Source of the DNA: Escherichia phage vB_EcoM_PD205 | Direction: 5' to 3' (one strand) | Sequence record: ON922919 | Length of the DNA: 64,000 nt | In this document: positions 1 to 12,508 of the stretch, one piece after another | Numbering within the stretch: the first letter of the stretch is position 1 | Layout of the letters: every line of letters starts with the position of its first letter | Notes under the pieces: model-generated | Told to the model about the DNA's origin: nothing | What the model saw: only the letters and a program-made list of their open reading frames with translations | Databases searched by the model: none | Position numbers and translations under genes: made by a program

Positions 1-1074
1 CTGACGACGCAGGTCATTACCGTAGTTAGGATGGCAACGGAAGCAGTCATGTACAGTCATTACAGGGAAAGGTTTCTTAGGCATAGTATTGAGCATAGCC
101 AGGATTACATCTGTATCTACCAATGCAATGGTTTCTGAATCCAGATAATCAAAGATACGGGTAGACAGGAATCCAGACTTCTCATAACTAGTCCATAATG
201 TATTAACCATTTCATAGTTATCATCAGAACCAACCATGTAGTCACCAGTTCCTTCACAGATGGACTTAACATAGTTCACCTGGTTCATGTCGAAGTTACA
301 ACGACGTAGCATCTCACGTACCACCATTCCATCAATAGAGTGGGTGATGTTAGCAGAGAGCATACGGGTCTTCTCTTCAGTACCCTGAACCATACGAGTG
401 ATGTCGAATGGCTTACCTAAGAAGTTAACAGTCTGTACTTCAGGAACCATGACCTTAATGACAGCATGGAAGTTGTCAGGGAGTACCCATATGTAACGGT
501 TAGCATCTGGGTTACCACATTGCAGTAAGAACTTGTTAAGTGCCCAAGGACCACTAGCAACAGTTTCCATTACATTCTCAAAAGTCTTGAGACGAATACC
601 TTCACCGAATACTTCTTTAGGCTTGGCTTCTGAACCGTAGAATGCAGTCATAACAGCCTGTTTAGTGTCACTACGTTTAATACGTGATGCTTCACCAAGG
701 ATGTCCAGCATCTTGTGATAGATGACTGTATAAGCATCACGGCGTAATGGTTTACCATTCTCGCCCATGTAGTTAACTACGTTACACAGTTCAGCAGCAG
801 AGCGGTCACCAGTCAGGCAAGCCAGTAACTGCAAGCCTGATGATGTAGCATCCAGAGCTACGGCATAACCGATAGGCTTACCAGCTTTCATATCTTTCCA
901 TGCATTTATGCCTGCAAAGAACAGAGCAGAATCTTCAGCTTCATCTACCAGATTAAGCAGGTTAGCTTCGTTCTCATCGAACCAGGCAATACGTTCATCC
1001 CATGTCTTCTTGTCTAAGCCATAGTTATTAGCGATATCTACTTTCAGGTATTCACGAGCGGTTAACAGTTGCAT
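1..1074 (-). CDS. T7-like single-subunit RNA polymerase catalytic fragment (N4 RNAP II large-subunit-like); gene runs off the window start, only N-terminal ~358 codons present
   Basis: Own translation of minus strand from ATG 1074..1072 (AAGGAA 6 nt upstream): MQLLTAREYLKVDIANNYGLDKKTWDERIAWFDENEANLLNLVDEAEDSALFFAGINAWKDMKAGKPIGYAVALDATSSGLQLLACLTGDRSAAELCN... (verified codon by codon to this point); DATSSGLQ resembles T7 RNAP motif A (DGSCSGIQ). Less carefully checked continuation shows motif B-like MTAFYGSEAKPK and motif C-like VHDCF. Not in ORF track because it is open at the window edge. Confidence 0.8.
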   Translation of the reverse strand, partial: MQLLTAREYLKVDIANNYGLDKKTWDERIAWFDENEANLLNLVDEAEDSALFFAGINAWKDMKAGKPIGYAVALDATSSGLQLLACLTGDRSAAELCNVVNYMGENGKPLRRDAYTVIYHKMLDILGEASRIKRSDTKQAVMTAFYGSEAKPKEVFGEGIRLKTFENVMETVASGPWALNKFLLQCGNPDANRYIWVLPDNFHAVIKVMVPEVQTVNFLGKPFDITRMVQGTEEKTRMLSANITHSIDGMVVREMLRRCNFDMNQVNYVKSICEGTGDYMVGSDDNYEMVNTLWTSYEKSGFLSTRIFDYLDSETIALVDTDVILAMLNTMPKKPFPVMTVHDCFRCHPNYGNDLRRQ

Positions 1075-6424: not shown

Positions 6425-6439
6425 AGACGCGGAGCGTCT
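6425..6439 (-). promoter_or_regulatory. N4 vRNAP-type hairpin promoter (AGACGC-GGA-GCGTCT); predicted +1 near 6421
   Basis: Perfect 6 bp stem with GGA loop, core GCGGAGC; intergenic between stop of 6446..6724 and gene 5940..6320; predicted +1 template base C. Confidence 0.55.
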
Positions 6440-6757: not shown

Positions 6758-6772
6758 AGATGCGGAGCATCT
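6758..6772 (-). promoter_or_regulatory. N4 vRNAP-type hairpin promoter (AGATGC-GGA-GCATCT); predicted +1 near 6754
   Basis: Perfect 6 bp stem with GGA loop; intergenic; predicted +1 template base C. Confidence 0.55.
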
Positions 6773-7149: not shown

Positions 7150-7329
7150 TTATGGTATGTAAGACATCCAGGTTAACATTTCAGCTTTGGCTTCTTGGTA
7201 TTCAGCTTCAACTACTTGAGGGTCAAATTGATTTCTATCATTTTGTAAACCCTCATGTGTTCTTACAGCTTCTTCGAATCTTTCCAGAGCTTCTTGTGGT
7301 GATTTAGCTTTGCAATCTGTCAGGGACAT
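7150..7329 (-). CDS. hypothetical small protein (59 aa, below ORF-track cutoff)
   Basis: Own translation: MSLTDCKAKSPQEALERFEEAVRTHEGLQNDRNQFDPQVVEAEYQEAKAEMLTWMSYIP; GGAG RBS; fills gap between annotated ORFs. Confidence 0.3.
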   Translation of the reverse strand: MSLTDCKAKSPQEALERFEEAVRTHEGLQNDRNQFDPQVVEAEYQEAKAEMLTWMSYIP

Positions 7330-7380
7330 TTTACTTCTCCTAAAGTAGATAACTATCTACTTAGTTGAACTATCTAATCT

Positions 7381-7408
7381 TTATAAAAGGAGACTCCGAA
7401 GAGTCTCC
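7381..7408 (-). terminator. rho-independent terminator (GGAGACTC-CGAA-GAGTCTCC; RNA loop UUCG) with U-tract
   Basis: 8 bp perfect stem 7389..7408 followed on minus strand by UUUUAUAA; 9 nt after stop of gene 7417..7740. Confidence 0.65.
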
Positions 7409-7416
7409 TATGTGGT

Positions 7417-7740
7417 TTAGTCTTTAGTCAGGATGTCAATTACTTTGGAATATTCTGCGTTATAGATACGAGCGTTCTCTGAATCCTTGCAGAATTCCTC
7501 GATACTTTTCTTACGCAGAGTCTCAGTCATAGCTGTTTCCTCTGCCAGTTTATTAACAAAGGTATGCATTTCTAATTTAGTACGAATGGCTTGTTTCTCT
7601 GCCATTGTACTTACATATGAATTAAGCATACCTACTGCTTTAGTTGCAGTGCTGAATGTATCTGCAACAGTAGTAGCAGCTGAGTTAACAGTACCAAGTA
7701 AAGTTCCTGCGGTCATACGTACAGTAGCTTGAGTAGTCAT
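7417..7740 (-). CDS. hypothetical early protein
   Basis: ORF track 7417..7818; internal ATG 7740 chosen because it is preceded by CAACTATTGGAG motif (GGAG RBS) and the upstream part overlaps a promoter-like hairpin. Confidence 0.4.
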   Translation of the reverse strand: MTTQATVRMTAGTLLGTVNSAATTVADTFSTATKAVGMLNSYVSTMAEKQAIRTKLEMHTFVNKLAEETAMTETLRKKSIEEFCKDSENARIYNAEYSKVIDILTKD

Positions 7741-7784
7741 GATGATAGCTCCAATAGTTGATGATAGGACGACATGTCCATAAC

Positions 7785-7795
7785 ATGCGGAGCAT
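7785..7795 (-). promoter_or_regulatory. degenerate N4 vRNAP-type hairpin promoter (ATGC-GGA-GCAT, 4 bp stem); predicted +1 near 7779
   Basis: Shares 11 nt core ATGCGGAGCAT with hairpin 6758..6772 but outer stem pairs are lost; 45 nt upstream of ATG 7740; predicted +1 template base C. Confidence 0.35.
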
Positions 7796-7851
7796 CGCTG
7801 ACGAACGAAGTGAGTCAAGCATGTGTAACGTGTAAGGTGGGGTAGGGTAGT

Positions 7852-7922
7852 GGCTACACCGTCAACATACCGGGGGGGCTAGTTGAGTGTAAGGGTGTAG
7901 CCCCAGCCACACCACTGTAGCC
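7852..7922. repeat. intergenic repeat cluster: GGCTACACC (7852..7860) inverted to GGTGTAGCC (7894..7902), plus second direct copy TGTAGCC (7916..7922)
   Basis: Read directly; 9 bp inverted repeat with 33 nt spacer, alternative 7 bp pairing partner 20 nt further on; flanked by GGGTAGGGTAG and a G7 run. Confidence 0.5.
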
Positions 7923-7967
7923 ATACATAACTATGCTACTTTTCATACGCAAAATATGATAGCTATC

Positions 7968-8294
7968 TTACTTATAAGCAGTTAAATAGGAGGAAGGAAT
8001 CTGGGAGAGGATGTAGTCATAGTAATAGCAATATGCTTCACTATAGGTAGAGTTTATAGGCATACCTATGTAGTCAAACACCCATAAACAGAAATGATTG
8101 AGTTCGTGGATGAGTGTATGTAAAGGTTCCTTGAAGATACCAATCAATACACGATTACCAGAGTAAGTAGTATACCCTTTACAACCTTCCAAGTCTGGCT
8201 CATACCCTTTGAGCTTCTTGTATTTCTTAATGAAGGTATCCTGGTCGAATACTACTTCTAACTGTACCGGGTAGGGTGCTGTGTTTAGTTTCAT
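7968..8294 (-). CDS. hypothetical protein with HExxH motif (possible minimal zinc metallopeptidase-like protein)
   Basis: 108 aa; LIHELNHFCLWVFDY contains HELNH; ATG start. Confidence 0.35.
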   Translation of the reverse strand: MKLNTAPYPVQLEVVFDQDTFIKKYKKLKGYEPDLEGCKGYTTYSGNRVLIGIFKEPLHTLIHELNHFCLWVFDYIGMPINSTYSEAYCYYYDYILSQIPSSYLTAYK

Positions 8295-8575
8295 TGTCTT
8301 TCCTTATAGATTGGGGTGTTATCCTCGAAGGATAGGATGTACTTGTCTGTATTAAGATGCCAAGGACTAAAGCTACCCTGCCAGGACATAGGTGTTCCTG
8401 GCTCAAGTAGATATACTTCTGCCTTCTTATTGTATAGGAAGAGTAATCCTTGTAATTCATGCAGAGACTGCTCATCTGGAACCAAGATAAGTACATCTGC
8501 GTCTAGATTAGCTATATCTTTATGACGGTAGTAGTCATCCTCAAGTACTGCTGAATAAATTTTACTGATAACCAT
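8291..8575 (-). CDS. hypothetical protein, member of tandem paralog family
   Basis: 94 aa; shared motif DADVLILVPDEQSLHELQGLLFL...VYLLEP. Confidence 0.4.
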   Translation of the reverse strand: MVISKIYSAVLEDDYYRHKDIANLDADVLILVPDEQSLHELQGLLFLYNKKAEVYLLEPGTPMSWQGSFSPWHLNTDKYILSFEDNTPIYKERQ

Positions 8576-10236: not shown

Positions 10237-10926
10237 ATGAGTGAACTAACTAAGCAGCAGATTATTAATGCCTTACCTGCTAACTTCAAAAACAGTGTGA
10301 CCCAAGAGTTAGTAGACACAATTAACAACATAACCCAAGACCAACTGGTTGCTGAGTCCTTCCGTGAAAACTTCATCTCCTACTCTGGTGTTATGAAGGA
10401 AGGTAAGTTTAAGACCCAGGACTACATGAATGCAGTTCAGTATGTGACTTACAAACATATGGGCTACTCAAATAAGGAAGCCTACTTCAAGACATTCCCT
10501 AACCGACAAGCAGAACTTGTTGCACGAGGAACCAGTGAGAAAGATATTAGTGCCTACGTATCTGCTTACCACAGGGGTAAGTTAGTTAACCTCATCATGG
10601 AACAAAGTTTGGTTCCAGTGTGGATTGTGAACCAGGACAATTATCAGAAGGCAATCAACGTTCAGGTTGAACTGATGACTACAGCAGCAAGTGAGAAAGT
10701 AAGATGTGATGCAGCTAACTCTATCCTTACTCACTTAGCTAAACCGAAAGACCAGGTAACTAATATCAACCTGGACTTGAGAGAGAACTCCGGATTGACC
10801 GACCTCAGGGCAACACTTGCTGCATTAGCTGAACAGCAGATTAATGCAATCAACAGTGGTGTACCCACCAAAGAGGTTGCTGGTTCTAAACTAGTACGTG
10901 CAGATGAGGACATTACAGATGTCTGA
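10237..10926 (+). CDS. hypothetical protein; position immediately upstream of and overlapping terminase large subunit suggests terminase small subunit
   Basis: 229 aa ORF, first gene of plus-strand late module; function inferred from synteny only. Confidence 0.4.
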   Translation: MSELTKQQIINALPANFKNSVTQELVDTINNITQDQLVAESFRENFISYSGVMKEGKFKTQDYMNAVQYVTYKHMGYSNKEAYFKTFPNRQAELVARGTSEKDISAYVSAYHRGKLVNLIMEQSLVPVWIVNQDNYQKAINVQVELMTTAASEKVRCDAANSILTHLAKPKDQVTNINLDLRENSGLTDLRATLAALAEQQINAINSGVPTKEVAGSKLVRADEDITDV

Positions 10927-12508
10927 GTTAATTAAGCAGGAACTGGATGAATGGCTAGACCAGGTGGATTACTCCCACCTTAATTCATCTAACTATGTTC
11001 CTAGTCAGTTTGCTCTTACCTTTGCCAACTTTATTAAGTTGGTTAACGGCAAAGAGGGTGAGTCCAACAAAACACCTCCAGTTCACTTGAAGATGCTGGA
11101 TAAGATGATTAGTCCGAACCAGTATGTAGTTAACCTGTGCTTCCGTGGTGCAGGTAAGACTGCTGTGTTCATGGAATACTTTACTTTGTTCCTGGCAGTG
11201 TTTGGTCACTTACCAAGTTTGGGTAAGGTAGAGGGAATGATTTACGTATCTGACTCAATGGATAACGGTGCTAAGTCTGCACGTAAGAACATCGAGTTCC
11301 GTTACAAGAATAGTGAGTTTCTTCAGCAATGGATACCTGAAGCTACTTTTACAGATAACCTGTTAGAGTTTCGTAATGTAGAAGGGCATCGACTAGGTGT
11401 TAAGCTGTTTGGTGCTAAGACAGGTCTTCGTGGTACGAAGATATATGGTAAACGTCCAACACTCTGCGTACTGGATGACTTGATTAGTGATGGTGATGCT
11501 AACTCCAAGACGAGCATGGAAGCTATTAAAGACACCGTTTATAAAGGTGTGAACCATGCTCTTGACCCTACTCGTCGTAAAGTAATCTTCAACGGTACTC
11601 CCTTTAATAAGGAAGACATTATCATTGAAGCTGTTGAGTCTGGTGCATGGGATGTCAACGTATGGCCTGTATGTGAGAAGTTCCCTTGCAGTAGAGAAGA
11701 ATTTCAGGGTGCATGGGATGACCGTTTCTCTTACGACTACATTAAAGCCCAATATGACATGGCAGTTAAGACTGGTAAGCTGGCAGGTTTCTATCAGGAA
11801 CTTATGCTCCGTATCAGTTCTGAAGATGAGAGACTGGTTCAGGATAGTGAAATTAGATGGTATAGCAGACAGCAACTATTAAGGATGAAGTCTTGCTATA
11901 ACTATTACATCACAACCGACTTTGCTACATCGGAGAAACAGACCAGTGACTACAGTGTCATATCAGTTTGGGCTTATAGTTCTAATGGAGATTGGTTCTG
12001 GGTTGATGGTGTGGCTAATCGTCAGCTTATGGATAAAAACTTTGATGACCTGTTCCGTCTGGTTCAAGAATACCAACCACAAAACGTTGGGGTCGAAATC
12101 ACAGGGCAGCAAGGTGGATTCATTTCACTCCTTCAGAAGGAAATGATTAACCGTAATGTCTTCTTTAACTTTGCATCTTCTGAGGGTGGTAAGCCAGGCA
12201 TCCGTCCTGTAACTTCTAAGCTGTCACGCTTTAACCTGGTAGTTCCATGGTTCAAAGCTGGTAAGATGTATTTCCCGGAAGAGTTGAGAGACTCAACTAT
12301 TATGGGTCTGTTCATGGGTCAGATTAAACTAGCTACCATTAATGGAATCAAAGGCAAGGATGACTGTATTGATACTATCTCCATGCTGGGTTATCTCAAT
12401 CCTTGGAAGCCGCAAGCAGGTATGACTATGGTGGATAATAAGGGTGACCCAATGTGGGATGACGAAGAAGAAGATAGTGTTAACCCACTACGTTCATACA
12501 TTGTGTGA
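10919..12508 (+). CDS. terminase large subunit
   Basis: ORF track 10898..12508; ATG 10919 preferred (GAGGA RBS, ATG overlaps upstream stop); Walker A-like LCFRGAGKTAV, Walker B-like LCVLDDLISDGD, C-terminal nuclease-like region. Confidence 0.8.
   Translation: MSELIKQELDEWLDQVDYSHLNSSNYVPSQFALTFANFIKLVNGKEGESNKTPPVHLKMLDKMISPNQYVVNLCFRGAGKTAVFMEYFTLFLAVFGHLPSLGKVEGMIYVSDSMDNGAKSARKNIEFRYKNSEFLQQWIPEATFTDNLLEFRNVEGHRLGVKLFGAKTGLRGTKIYGKRPTLCVLDDLISDGDANSKTSMEAIKDTVYKGVNHALDPTRRKVIFNGTPFNKEDIIIEAVESGAWDVNVWPVCEKFPCSREEFQGAWDDRFSYDYIKAQYDMAVKTGKLAGFYQELMLRISSEDERLVQDSEIRWYSRQQLLRMKSCYNYYITTDFATSEKQTSDYSVISVWAYSSNGDWFWVDGVANRQLMDKNFDDLFRLVQEYQPQNVGVEITGQQGGFISLLQKEMINRNVFFNFASSEGGKPGIRPVTSKLSRFNLVVPWFKAGKMYFPEELRDSTIMGLFMGQIKLATINGIKGKDDCIDTISMLGYLNPWKPQAGMTMVDNKGDPMWDDEEEDSVNPLRSYIV

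Follow-up and report, generated by a model that had tools for sequence, protein, structure and literature searches.

The terminal repeat of T7 and T3 is made by site-specific staggered nicks followed by fill-in, and T7 ends also carry arrays of short repeats beside the terminal repeat. Lambda cos combines a nick site (cosN) with an array of small-terminase binding sites (cosB), and its cut gives cohesive ends. N4 is reported to have an accurate left terminus and several possible right termini, with terminal repeats of 390–440 bp (Ohmori, Haynes and Rothman-Denes 1988, cited in PMC3670811, PMC5557969 and PMC3715699). The virion RNA polymerase enters the cell along with the DNA and initiates at hairpin promoters.

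We analysed a window of 64,000 nucleotides from Escherichia phage vB_EcoM_PD205 (ON922919), which is a Gamaleyavirus genome (G7C/N4-like, Schitoviridae), focusing on an intergenic interval at 7852–7922 that an initial annotation had described as an iteron- or operator-like repeat cluster upstream of an early promoter. By homology to mapped relatives, the interval is predicted to straddle the physical left end of the virion chromosome; this left boundary of the direct terminal repeat had escaped the initial annotation (Table 1). The junction resembles the T7/T3 type in its short exact terminal repeat and fixed ends, and the PhageTerm class of relatives is ‘T7-like short DTR’, but there is no sequence similarity, the right end of N4 is heterogeneous and the terminase belongs to another family. 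An analogy with lambda cos is possible, in that the cut is flanked on one side, over ~100 bp, by short direct and inverted elements near the terminase genes; lambda differs in its cohesive ends in place of a terminal repeat and shares no homology with this end, where an IHF-type site was not identified. Iterons and promoter operators are likewise short repeats within non-coding DNA, whereas this locus has no phased array, promoter overlap or initiator/repressor context, and its conservation is anchored to the DNA end.

Table 1. Features at and around the predicted left chromosome end (window coordinates; nt, distance from the left end of the chromosome)
Feature	Position	Strand	Details
Last right-end ORF, G7C gp71.2 homologue	7968–8294		Stop borders spacer 7911–7967
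Unique right-end spacer	7911–7967	−	Outer copy GGCTACA (7922–7916) and conserved cut-proximal CAGT (7917–7914)
Predicted physical left terminus	7907–7911	− (5' end)	From mapped ends of relatives, best placed at 7909–7911; cut within CAGTGGT^G^TGGCTGGGG
Predicted direct terminal repeat, ~429 bp	7482–7910	−	Holds end module, P1 hairpin promoter and most of gp1
Enquatrovirinae terminal block GGGGCTACACCCTTACAC	7887–7904	−	nt 7–24; inner copy (7894–7902) and two YACAC
C7GGTA	7868–7878	−	G7 run of the initial annotation on the + strand; poly-C from nt 33
Lineage-variable spacer	7852–7867	−	Inverted arm GGTGTAGCC (7860–7852), left arm of the initial annotation
ACTACCCTACCCCACCTT	7834–7851	−	GGGTAGGGTAG of the initial annotation on the + strand; core CTACCCCAC at 7845–7837, nt 66–74
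Two more YACAC units	7823–7835	−	TTACAC-G-TTACAC
27-nt insertion	7796–7822	−	Degenerate hairpin cassette GACTCAC-TTC-GTTCGTC; parts end module from P1
P1-type virion-RNA-polymerase hairpin promoter	7785–7795	−	ATGC-TCC-GCAT, then TTATGG
gp1 homologue, first early gene	7417–7740	−	phrog_5020, E = 1e-44
gp69 homologue, small terminase by annotation	10237–10926	+	77% identical to N4 gp69
Large terminase (TerL)	10904–12508	+	phrog_38, E = 3e-101; Pfam Terminase_6C

A predicted left terminus and terminal repeat

Converted to window coordinates, the first bases of related genomes fall at 7910 (Mimir124, Jgk1), 7909 (G7C), 7908 (U1G) and 7907 (St11Ph5), and the PD38 and PhAPEC7 records likewise start in 7907–7910. 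Read starts of IME11 pile up at GTGGCTGGGG (240 reads), TGTGGCTGGGG (180) and TGGCTGGGG (102), with a second peak, AATCTTTGCAGAAATCTTCG, 401 bp from the left-end peak (PMC3896407). The repeat of Mimir124, annotated as 1..403, was defined with PhageTerm; its authors describe the left-end position as similar to that of G7C, the latter verified by Sanger run-off (PMC11640937). The mapped termini of G7C, IME11 and Mimir124 agree with the window in the position of the cut (within 1–3 nt) and are identical in terminal sequence, their repeats measuring 401–403 bp. G7C differs in the variable spacer, where GGGTGTA replaces GGTGTAGCC, and the label ‘contains terminal repeat’ in the G7C record covers 1160 bp.

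The second IME11 peak matches window position 7482 (AATCCTTGCAG), which is also where the UE-S5a, UE-M3 and PBM-3 records start; the Bp4 and Uz-1 records start at 7473, a minor IME11 peak. The repeat predicted from these positions contains 27 nt inserted relative to most relatives. No second copy of it lies within the 64-kb window, and its right boundary, inside the gp1 coding sequence, shows no motif similar to those of the left end. Gene layout is that of an N4-like terminus: last right-end ORF, spacer, P1 hairpin inside the repeat, gp1 (annotated in G7C as similar to N4 gp1). The terminase genes adjoin the junction at a distance of 2.3 kb and encode candidate trans-acting partners; the N4 homologue gp69 has been labelled TerS (PMC10654107).

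The N4 record starts with the homologous TGGTGGGG, and N4 nt 1–90 align block for block with window 7909–7823, in the order TGG-GGGGCTACACCC(C)TTACAC, poly-C, inverted GTGTAGCC, CCTACCCCACCTT, TACACGTTACAC and P1 hairpin. Gene context is shared too: gp1 follows downstream, and gp69/gp68 lie close to the junction on its opposite side. The two differ just outside the cut (CAGTGGTG versus CAGTATT), in the 27-nt insertion that the window carries before P1 and in the P1 stem, which is only 4 bp in the window compared with 6 bp in relatives. This stem shows compensatory changes in G7C, N4 and VLCpiP4a (GTTGC...GCAAC). A perfect version of the inserted cassette, GACGAAC-TTC-GTTCGTC, occurs in an IMG/VR contig (L006/L040).

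A conserved end module across N4-like phages

Comparison with related genomes reveals a module of ~100 bp whose parts keep their distance to the DNA end. The terminal block GGGGCTACACCCTTACAC is without substitution in 12 of 15 aligned sequences, Moovirus included; N4 and Kaypoctavirus carry one extra C, two metagenomic lineages read GAGG (mgL007) and CACCTTT (mgL013), and the block is absent from LIT1 and LUZ7. Poly-C starts at nt 29–35 from the left end in N4, G7C, KP8, LIT1, LUZ7, Axy11, Zuri, Paxi and Pylas. CTACCCCAC starts at nt 65–70 in N4, G7C, KP8 and LIT1, with variants at ~62–64 in Axy11, Zuri and Paxi, and is missing in LUZ7 and Pylas; the longer ACTACCCTACCCCACCTT stretch has at most two substitutions in all 15 aligned relatives. 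Both positions are thus kept across genera from several subfamilies although the sequence between them is unrelated. On the other side of the cut, YAGT stands 2–4 nt before the mapped 5' end in N4, LIT1, KP8, G7C and IME11. Exact CCCCCCGG and exact CTACCCCAC each occur once in the 64-kb window.

A shorter unit, YACAC, is present as four top-strand copies and one inverted copy in the first 90 nt; for the first 100 nt its window-wide rate predicts 0.13 top-strand copies. Ten left ends were compared, the predicted one of the window and those of nine end-annotated genomes; eight contain the unit, which is missing in LIT1 and LUZ7. Dinucleotide-preserving shuffles of these 100 nt make the enrichment no more than marginal (p = 0.006–0.15), and five copies of a pentamer within 80 nt are not unusual, many pentamers in the window reaching that count.

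Scanning IMG/VR with the pattern CCCCCCGG-N15-40-CTACCCCAC, we found 13 further metagenomic lineages with the same layout, each encoding TerL and gp69 homologues nearby. Module loci that encode both proteins outside the Enquatrovirinae/LIT1 group are L041, L069, L071, L078, L084, L093–L095, L107, L108 and L114. Approximately two thirds of the 85 matches examined were non-N4-like, with neither homologue pair encoded, and were discarded; two of these, L055 and L085, have a TerL match alone. TerL is 52–100% identical across the genera compared for the module, and 479 records are TerL-positive. The stretch between module and promoter hairpin tolerates insertions (27, 29 and ~190 nt in different relatives), but that between module and cut does not. 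Conserved sequence is found on both sides of the cut, at fixed distance, in phages that share the terminase, as expected of a cos/pac-type cis element.

These comparisons suggest a positional left-end signature common to N4-like phages of many genera: YAGT, cut, poly-C at approximately +30, CTACCCCAC at approximately +65 and, often, YACAC. A literature search for the motif strings returned no phage paper with the two family-wide ones, and the terminal GGGGCTACACCC only in the IME11 read table; in the searchable literature we found no description of the signature.

Flagged repeats and their chance level

All of the elements first described are present: GGCTACACC at 7852–7860 with its reverse complement GGTGTAGCC at 7894–7902, the second TGTAGCC copy at 7916–7922, GGGTAGGGTAG at 7840–7850, the G7 run at 7872–7878 on the + strand and the minus-strand P1 hairpin, which lies downstream of the repeats in minus-strand terms. 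With one flanking base, the outer copy makes an 8-nt perfect inverted match (TGGCTACA at 7851–7858, TGTAGCCA at 7916–7923). Taken as repeats, they are at chance level. When the 227-nt spacer (7741–7967) is dinucleotide-shuffled, 8.4% of the shuffles contain a perfect, non-overlapping 9-nt inverted repeat; a 7-nt direct repeat within 40 nt is found in 38% of shuffles; over the whole window, 9-mer inverted matches with a 3–60-nt spacer number 39, versus 17.6 ± 5.3 in shuffles. What makes the region non-random is its conservation between genomes and its coincidence with mapped genome ends, not the repeat statistics.

Conservation divides the three copies. The inner copy, GGCTACACC at nt 9–17 of the chromosome, is invariant in Enquatrovirinae, and the G-run and GGGTAGGGTAG are deeply conserved. 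The outer copy lies outside the terminal repeat and is poorly conserved (GGCTACA, AGCTGCA, GGCTGTA, GAGTGCT and AGCCATA in relatives), and the inverted partner occupies nt 51–59, in the variable spacer. The best explanation of the outer 7-nt copy is a lineage-specific accident overlapping the cut-proximal CAGT; that of the 9-nt inverted repeat is an inverted YACAC-containing unit between two family-wide motifs. The left arm had also been proposed to pair with either partner. Both matches exist in the sequence, but the outer copy lies beyond the predicted terminus and so would not stand beside the left arm at the left end of the mature linear genome; only the right-end copy of the repeat, or a concatemer, would bring the two together. 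As a whole, the initial interpretation is partly supported.

Alternative readings of the end module

The flagged 9-nt inverted and 7-nt direct repeats may be functionless themselves, as by-products of a YACAC-rich, constrained terminal sequence. We hold this tentatively, at somewhat less than even odds: the chance levels (8% and 38%), the poor conservation of the outer copy, the location of the inverted arm in the most variable block and the lack of the inverted repeat in most module-keeping lineages all favour it, whereas the inverted GTGTA core is kept in N4, G7C and most Gamaleyavirus despite turnover of neighbouring bases. The inverted repeat could instead form a real structure. In DNA this might be a hairpin or cruciform, used for example in fold-back priming or end processing; in RNA it might be alternative hairpins within transcripts running out of the right-end genes into the terminal repeat. 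Several observations are consistent with this: with mismatches allowed, the 9-nt inverted repeat grows to 20 nt (7841–7860 with 7894–7913); 12 of 15 Enquatrovirinae lineages, N4 (GTGTAGCC) included, retain at least 6 nt complementary to the terminal block despite differing spacers; in the LIT1-like lineage the C-run is bracketed by an 8-nt inverted repeat of unrelated sequence (p = 0.005); and the minus-strand RNA of 7822–7967 folds with a single-sequence z of −2.3, a value matched by 4 of 200 shuffles and the only hint of a structured RNA element. Structure is nevertheless very unlikely. RNAalifold on 15 relatives gives zero compensatory pairs and omits the proposed helix; pair counts on that helix exceed column shuffles because the N4 and Kaypoctavirus rows are out of register by one column, which mimics changes on both sides, and because of shared ancestry. 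The + strand folds no better than shuffles as single-stranded DNA (z = −0.19), Rfam has no match over 7300–8400 at E ≤ 1, the loop would be 33 nt and no promoter lies upstream of the left-end copy on that strand. Tested against shuffles, an inverted repeat around the C-run is significant in only 4 of 17 lineages (the window type, N4 and G7C, which are related, and, independently, the LIT1-like lineage) and is absent in at least 10 others that keep the rest of the module; as a general structural requirement it was rejected. Still less credence goes to regulatory or replication repeats, whether operators for early HTH-type proteins controlling P1 or origin iterons, as the initial annotation had suggested. 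Short repeats in non-coding DNA upstream of an early promoter, with recurring YACAC units, would suit such a role. Iterons, however, comprise at least three direct repeats of ~17–22 bp at regular spacing, with an AT-rich unwinding region and an initiator gene adjoining; here there are two short direct copies, one of them poorly conserved, in no tandem, regular or phased array (Tandem Repeats Finder returns nothing at score ≥ 30), and neither a replication initiator gene nor an AT-rich unwinding element is adjacent. An operator of the early promoter fares no better, as the sites do not overlap P1, variable insertions separate them from it, the GCTCCGC-type hairpin promoters at 2478, 6429 and 6762 all lack the end-module motifs upstream, and conservation follows distance to the terminus, not to the promoter. 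A scan for sigma-70 promoters and terminators gave one promoter-like site (7985–7956, − strand), no more than in shuffles.

A further group of explanations accepts the module as an end element and has it act after packaging, on the DNA that enters first. Its motifs would be bound by a co-ejected virion protein (candidates being the virion RNA polymerase, through its N-terminal part, and other ejection proteins) that caps the end against exonucleases, anchors it, or does both; an anchored end would supply the closed topological domain required by gyrase for extruding the P1 hairpin ~100 nt away. The module is always at the early-gene end, ~70–150 nt from the first hairpin promoter, at which type of promoter the co-injected polymerase starts; Bal31 did not attack the ends of JA1, an N4-like Vibrio phage, even following proteinase K treatment; and the 3'-ended strand is G-rich, its tracts (GGGG-TA-GGG-N24-G7 on the + strand) scoring 1.6 in G4Hunter over 25 nt, among the top few values in the window. 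We nonetheless regard this, the main rival to a terminase site, as unlikely. No sequence feature connects the polymerase with the motifs, which the remaining hairpin promoters do without, and spacing to P1 varies; the conserved YAGT lies on the concatemer side, outside the repeat, where a cleavage site fits better than an end cap; the G4 score is equalled at two other window sites, some relatives have a C-run of just 6 nt, and N4 and LIT1 have TAGG in place of TAGGG. Less likely again is that the end module is a telomere-like leading-end element rather than (or not only) a terminase site, capped by a co-ejected virion protein or by the folded G-rich strand. If true, the cap would shield and anchor the end, and the injected segment would be a closed domain for gyrase-driven P1 extrusion.

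A putative terminase recognition module

Our preferred reading, to which we assign a probability of roughly 0.6, is that the ~100-bp end module at the N4-like left end is a terminase recognition and cleavage module, ordered as CAGT just outside the cut, YACAC repeats, poly-C at approximately +30, CTACCCCAC at approximately +65 and the first early hairpin promoter. In replicative concatemers, terminase (the gp69 homologue and the large subunit) would bind the module and cut one strand within CAGTGGT^G, a set distance away. On the other strand a second nick, of lower precision, would fall ~400–430 nt downstream, near 7482, and the terminal repeat would then be duplicated by strand-displacement synthesis. 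The earlier suggestion of repeated binding sites for a protein is plausible in an altered form, with YACAC as the recurring unit and the G-run and GGGTAGGG as family-wide positional motifs; their ligand is likely to be packaging or end-handling machinery rather than an early HTH regulator. Should the usual last-in, first-out rule apply, entry would begin with the left end and packaging would finish with it; the module would then act at termination of packaging, not initiation, or may serve ejection.

Implications for N4-like phages

The true chromosome ends and the ~429-bp terminal repeat of this genome can be placed from sequence alone, and the flagged repeats need no exotic explanation. If the left-end signature holds, it would provide a simple rule to orient and trim N4-like assemblies; its positions suggest offsets of ~45 nt in the Horatius record and ~10 nt in the Presley record. 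It would also provide mutational targets for the formation of precise left and imprecise right ends in N4-type phages, a question since 1988, and the same targets would bear on how the leading end is handled during the unusual polymerase-driven entry of these genomes.

A predicted chromosome end upstream of gp1

Megablast assigns the window to Gamaleyavirus (G7C-like, N4-like; Schitoviridae), with 87–94% identity to ZQ2, Bp4, ECBP1, IME11 and others. The repeat cluster flagged in the initial annotation (7852–7922) lies inside a 227-nt gap between the stop of the gp71.2 counterpart and the ATG of the gp1 homologue, among genes on the − strand. Homology to mapped ends makes it very probable (about 0.9) that this interval holds a physical chromosome end; G7C, IME11 and N4 had already revealed the terminus of this phage group. 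Position 1 of Mimir124, which has a 403-bp repeat annotated by PhageTerm, aligns to window 7910, and its authors describe a left end positioned similarly to that of G7C, whose ends were verified by Sanger run-off (PMC11640937). The G7C, U1G, St11Ph5 and Jgk1 records begin at 7909, 7908, 7907 and 7910, respectively; in U1G and St11Ph5 the last base directly precedes the record's own start point. Published IME11 read starts pile up at GTGGCTGGGGCTACACC (240 reads), TGTGGCTGGGG (180) and TGGCTGGGG (102), with an opposite peak, AATCTTTGCAGAAATCTTCG (486 reads), 401 bp away (PMC3896407); these map to 7910, 7911 and 7909 (all −) and to 7482 (+). Three records (UE-S5a, UE-M3 and PBM-3) begin at 7482 and two (Bp4 and Uz-1) at 7473, in agreement with a minor IME11 peak. 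The N4 record start, TGGTGGGGCTACACCCC, aligns block for block to the predicted end; terminal repeats of 390–440 bp are reported for N4, the left terminus being accurate and the right one having several possible positions (PMC3670811, PMC5557969, PMC3715699).

From these mapped ends and record starts we predict a direct terminal repeat of 429 bp (401 bp plus a 27-nt insertion), present as one copy in the window. Its right boundary cuts the gp1 coding sequence, so the right-end copy would hold the hairpin promoter P1 and a 3′-truncated gp1; relatives' record starts and minor IME11 peaks give two alternative right boundaries, 7482 and 7473, 9 nt apart. Directly past the gp1 stop, a strong hairpin, AGGAGACTC-TTCG-GAGTCTCCT followed by GTTTTG, is a likely early-transcript terminator, just beyond the predicted repeat. 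In the right-end spacer, ~50 nt ahead of the cut, is a sigma-70-like TTAACT-18-TATCAT, with counterparts in G7C, N4 and others (−10 TATAAT or CATAAT, then a T-run) that in some relatives follow a GGAGGT...ACCTCC hairpin; the site may instead be a terminator tail.

Coordinates of the features discussed
Feature	Window (strand)	Chromosome nt	Remark
GGCTACACC, left arm	7852–7860		Inverted partner of 7894–7902
GGTGTAGCC	7894–7902		Reverse complement of GGCTACACC
Inner GGCTACACC		9–17	
Inverted partner		51–59	
Second TGTAGCC	7916–7922		Direct copy
Outer GGCTACA		−6 to −12	Beyond repeat, unique right-end spacer
GGGTAGGGTAG	7840–7850		
G7 run	7872–7878		
Predicted terminal repeat	7482..7910		
P1 hairpin	7785–7795 (−)		
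27-nt insertion	7796–7822 (−)		Directly upstream of P1 hairpin
Hairpin promoters	2478–2484, 6429–6435, 6762–6768, 7787–7793 (−)		Virion-RNA-polymerase type
Likely terminator	7388–7409 (−)		
Sigma-70-like site	7956–7985 (−)		
ORF 7417..7740	(−)		Downstream; homologue of N4/G7C gp1
ORF 7968..8294	(−)		Upstream; corresponds to G7C gp71.2, last gene at genome right end
TerL	10904–12508		phrog_38, Terminase_6C
gp69 homologue	10237–10926		77% identity to N4 gp69

A left-end signature across the family

The left ends of the Pseudomonas phages LIT1 and LUZ7 (Migulavirinae), mapped by run-off sequencing, are without any N4 terminal block; CCCCCCCGGT(A) begins at nt 30 in LIT1 and nt 29 in LUZ7, and CCTACCCCACCTT occupies nt 69–81 of LIT1. 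Where a terminal repeat is annotated, poly-C starts at nt 31 (Axy11, Paxi and Pylas), 33 (Zuri) or 35 (KP8), and CTACCCCAC or a close variant lies at nt 62–70 in the end-annotated genomes compared, except LUZ7 and Pylas. YAGT stands 2–4 nt ahead of the mapped 5′ end in junction sequences (CAGTATT^T in N4, CAGTACT^T in LIT1, TAGTGT^A in KP8; CAGTGGT^G in the window). Among 85 IMG/VR matches to CCCCCCGG-N15-40-CTACCCCAC, those with an N4-like layout include 13 lineages outside Enquatrovirinae, all encoding, within a few kb, homologues of both the large terminase and the gp69-like protein of the window (N4 gp69 is labelled small terminase; PMC10654107). None of the matches lacking that layout encodes the homologue pair; two loci, L055 and L085, match TerL alone. 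Each core motif occurs exactly once in the 64-kb window. The comparison identifies the G7 run and GGGTAGGGTAG as the deeply conserved elements. The searchable literature, whose reach excludes the primary N4 and G7C papers, yielded no description of this cross-family signature of positions; the pair of family-wide motif strings occurs in no phage paper there, and the IME11 read table is the only place where the terminal GGGGCTACACCC appears.

By this signature, two record starts seem to precede the true cut: that of Horatius (MN812691, nt 1–80) by ~45 nt, with a cut at TACGGATGCTCAACT^TACTAC and C6 30 nt further on, and that of Presley (NC_023581, nt 1–50) by ~10 nt. The Jgk1 record (PV292302, nt 1–700) opens with one repeat copy, then a junction and a second copy, which looks like an assembly artefact. 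One lineage (IMG/VR contigs L013, L044 and L046) carries GCTGGTGG, identical to the E. coli Chi octamer, precisely at the predicted cut (GGTGGT-GCTGGTGG-GGCTACACC); by the orientation rule for Chi, RecBCD would read it on entry from the repeat copy at the right end. In other lineages this position is taken by near-Chi strings (GCTGGGG, TGGTGG).

The flagged repeats

The repeat positions, GGGTAGGGTAG and the G7 run are all as initially annotated, and TGTAGCC at 7916–7922 plus one flanking base forms a perfect 8-nt inverted match to 7851–7858. Taken as repeats, these sequences are unremarkable: dinucleotide shuffling of the 227-nt spacer gives a perfect non-overlapping 9-nt inverted repeat 8.4% of the time, a 7-nt direct repeat at ≤40 nt arises in 38% of shuffles, and five pentamer copies per 80 nt are attained by many pentamers somewhere in the window. 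Lying outside the terminal repeat, the outer GGCTACA would not be next to the left arm at the mature left end; the two would adjoin only in concatemers or where the repeat is copied at the right end.

Enquatrovirinae alignments (17 and 15 sequences) show GTGGTGTGGC(T/A)GGGGCTACACCCTTACAC, C6-9GGTATGT and ACTACCCTACCCCACCTTACACGTTACAC kept across the Gamaleyavirus and Moovirus sequences, apart from scattered substitutions (such as ACACC in ZQ2, GTGAC in G7C, GTGTT/GAGG in mgL007); N4 and the Kaypoctavirus diverge within GGTATGT and near the cut. Conservation in relatives holds family-wide for the G7 run and GGGTAGGGTAG, whereas the GGCTACACC repeats are subfamily-specific and the outer copy varies (GGCTACA, AGCTGCA, GGCTGTA, GAGTGCT, AGCCATA). 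The most variable block is the site of the inverted arm; despite this, 12 of the 15 sequences retain at least 6 nt complementary to the terminal block (GTGTAGCC in N4; GGGTGTA, register shifted, in G7C).

The proposal of repeated protein-binding sites survives in part, as a recurring YACAC unit. Top-strand YACAC occurs four times in the first 90 nt, plus one inverted copy, against a window-wide rate of 0.13 per 100 nt per strand; YTACAC has 5 matches in 7823–7900 versus 63 window-wide. N4, G7C, KP8, Axy11 (6), Zuri, Paxi (7) and Pylas likewise have top-strand repeats at their left ends, as do loci L069 and L071 in the form TCACAC; YACAC is absent from the left ends of LIT1 and LUZ7. Enrichment is only marginal when these 100 nt are compared with conservative shuffles that preserve dinucleotides (p = 0.006–0.15).

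Function of the end module

The initial annotation had read the cluster as iteron- or operator-like, or as a source of alternative RNA structures. No tandem array of iterons was detected. Alternative RNA structures found no known RNA family match, and RNAalifold neither predicted the proposed helix nor returned any compensatory pair; an apparent covariation in explicit pair counts was rejected as a product of the N4 and Kaypoctavirus rows being shifted by one column. Genuine compensatory change does occur in the P1 hairpin (ATGC..GCAT versus GTTGC..GCAAC). An operator of P1 is contradicted by the other GCTCCGC hairpin promoters (2478, 6429 and 6762, −), all three lacking end-module motifs upstream, and by insertions of variable length separating module from P1 (27 nt in the window, 29 nt in U1G, ~190 nt in loci L006 and L040). 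Across subfamilies, poly-C and CTACCCCAC keep their distances from the cut to within a few nucleotides, which argues that the constraint is anchored on the DNA end, not the promoter.

The window's insertion, absent from most relatives, leaves P1 with a 4-bp stem (ATGC/GCAT) in place of a 6-bp one (ACATGC/GCATGT). Its GACTCAC-TTC-GTTCGTC is a degenerate copy of a perfect hairpin (7-bp stem, 3-nt loop), GACGAAC-TTC-GTTCGTC, inserted downstream of TTACAC in L006 and L040 (IMG/VR), where L040 also has GGCTTG-CAAG-CAAGCC. Other phages have independent insertions at this position, likewise with hairpins that have 3–4-nt loops, as in U1G just past CCCTACCCCACCTTA (TAGTGTGC-TCT-GCACACTA and AGCC-TTC-GGCT); promoter-like hairpin cassettes seem to have been gained here repeatedly. 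The window's four hairpin promoters, one above the three usually quoted for N4, share a GC-TCC-GC core with lineage-variable stems and WWWGG downstream.

We lean slightly towards the end module being a terminase site, given an end located by homology to mapped ends, motifs conserved in position and terminase genes close by. In the main rival reading, the module might instead serve the first-entering DNA end, for example in capping or anchoring, as would suit the family's polymerase-driven genome entry, the unexplained Bal31 resistance of JA1 ends and the G-rich 3′-ended strand, whose quadruplex potential is, however, matched elsewhere in the window and not strictly conserved. As a terminase site, the module would be recognised in concatemers by the terminase, which would nick at a set distance from it and then again, less precisely, ~400–430 nt off; fill-in synthesis would complete the terminal repeat, in line with the general scheme summarised in the literature for such repeats.
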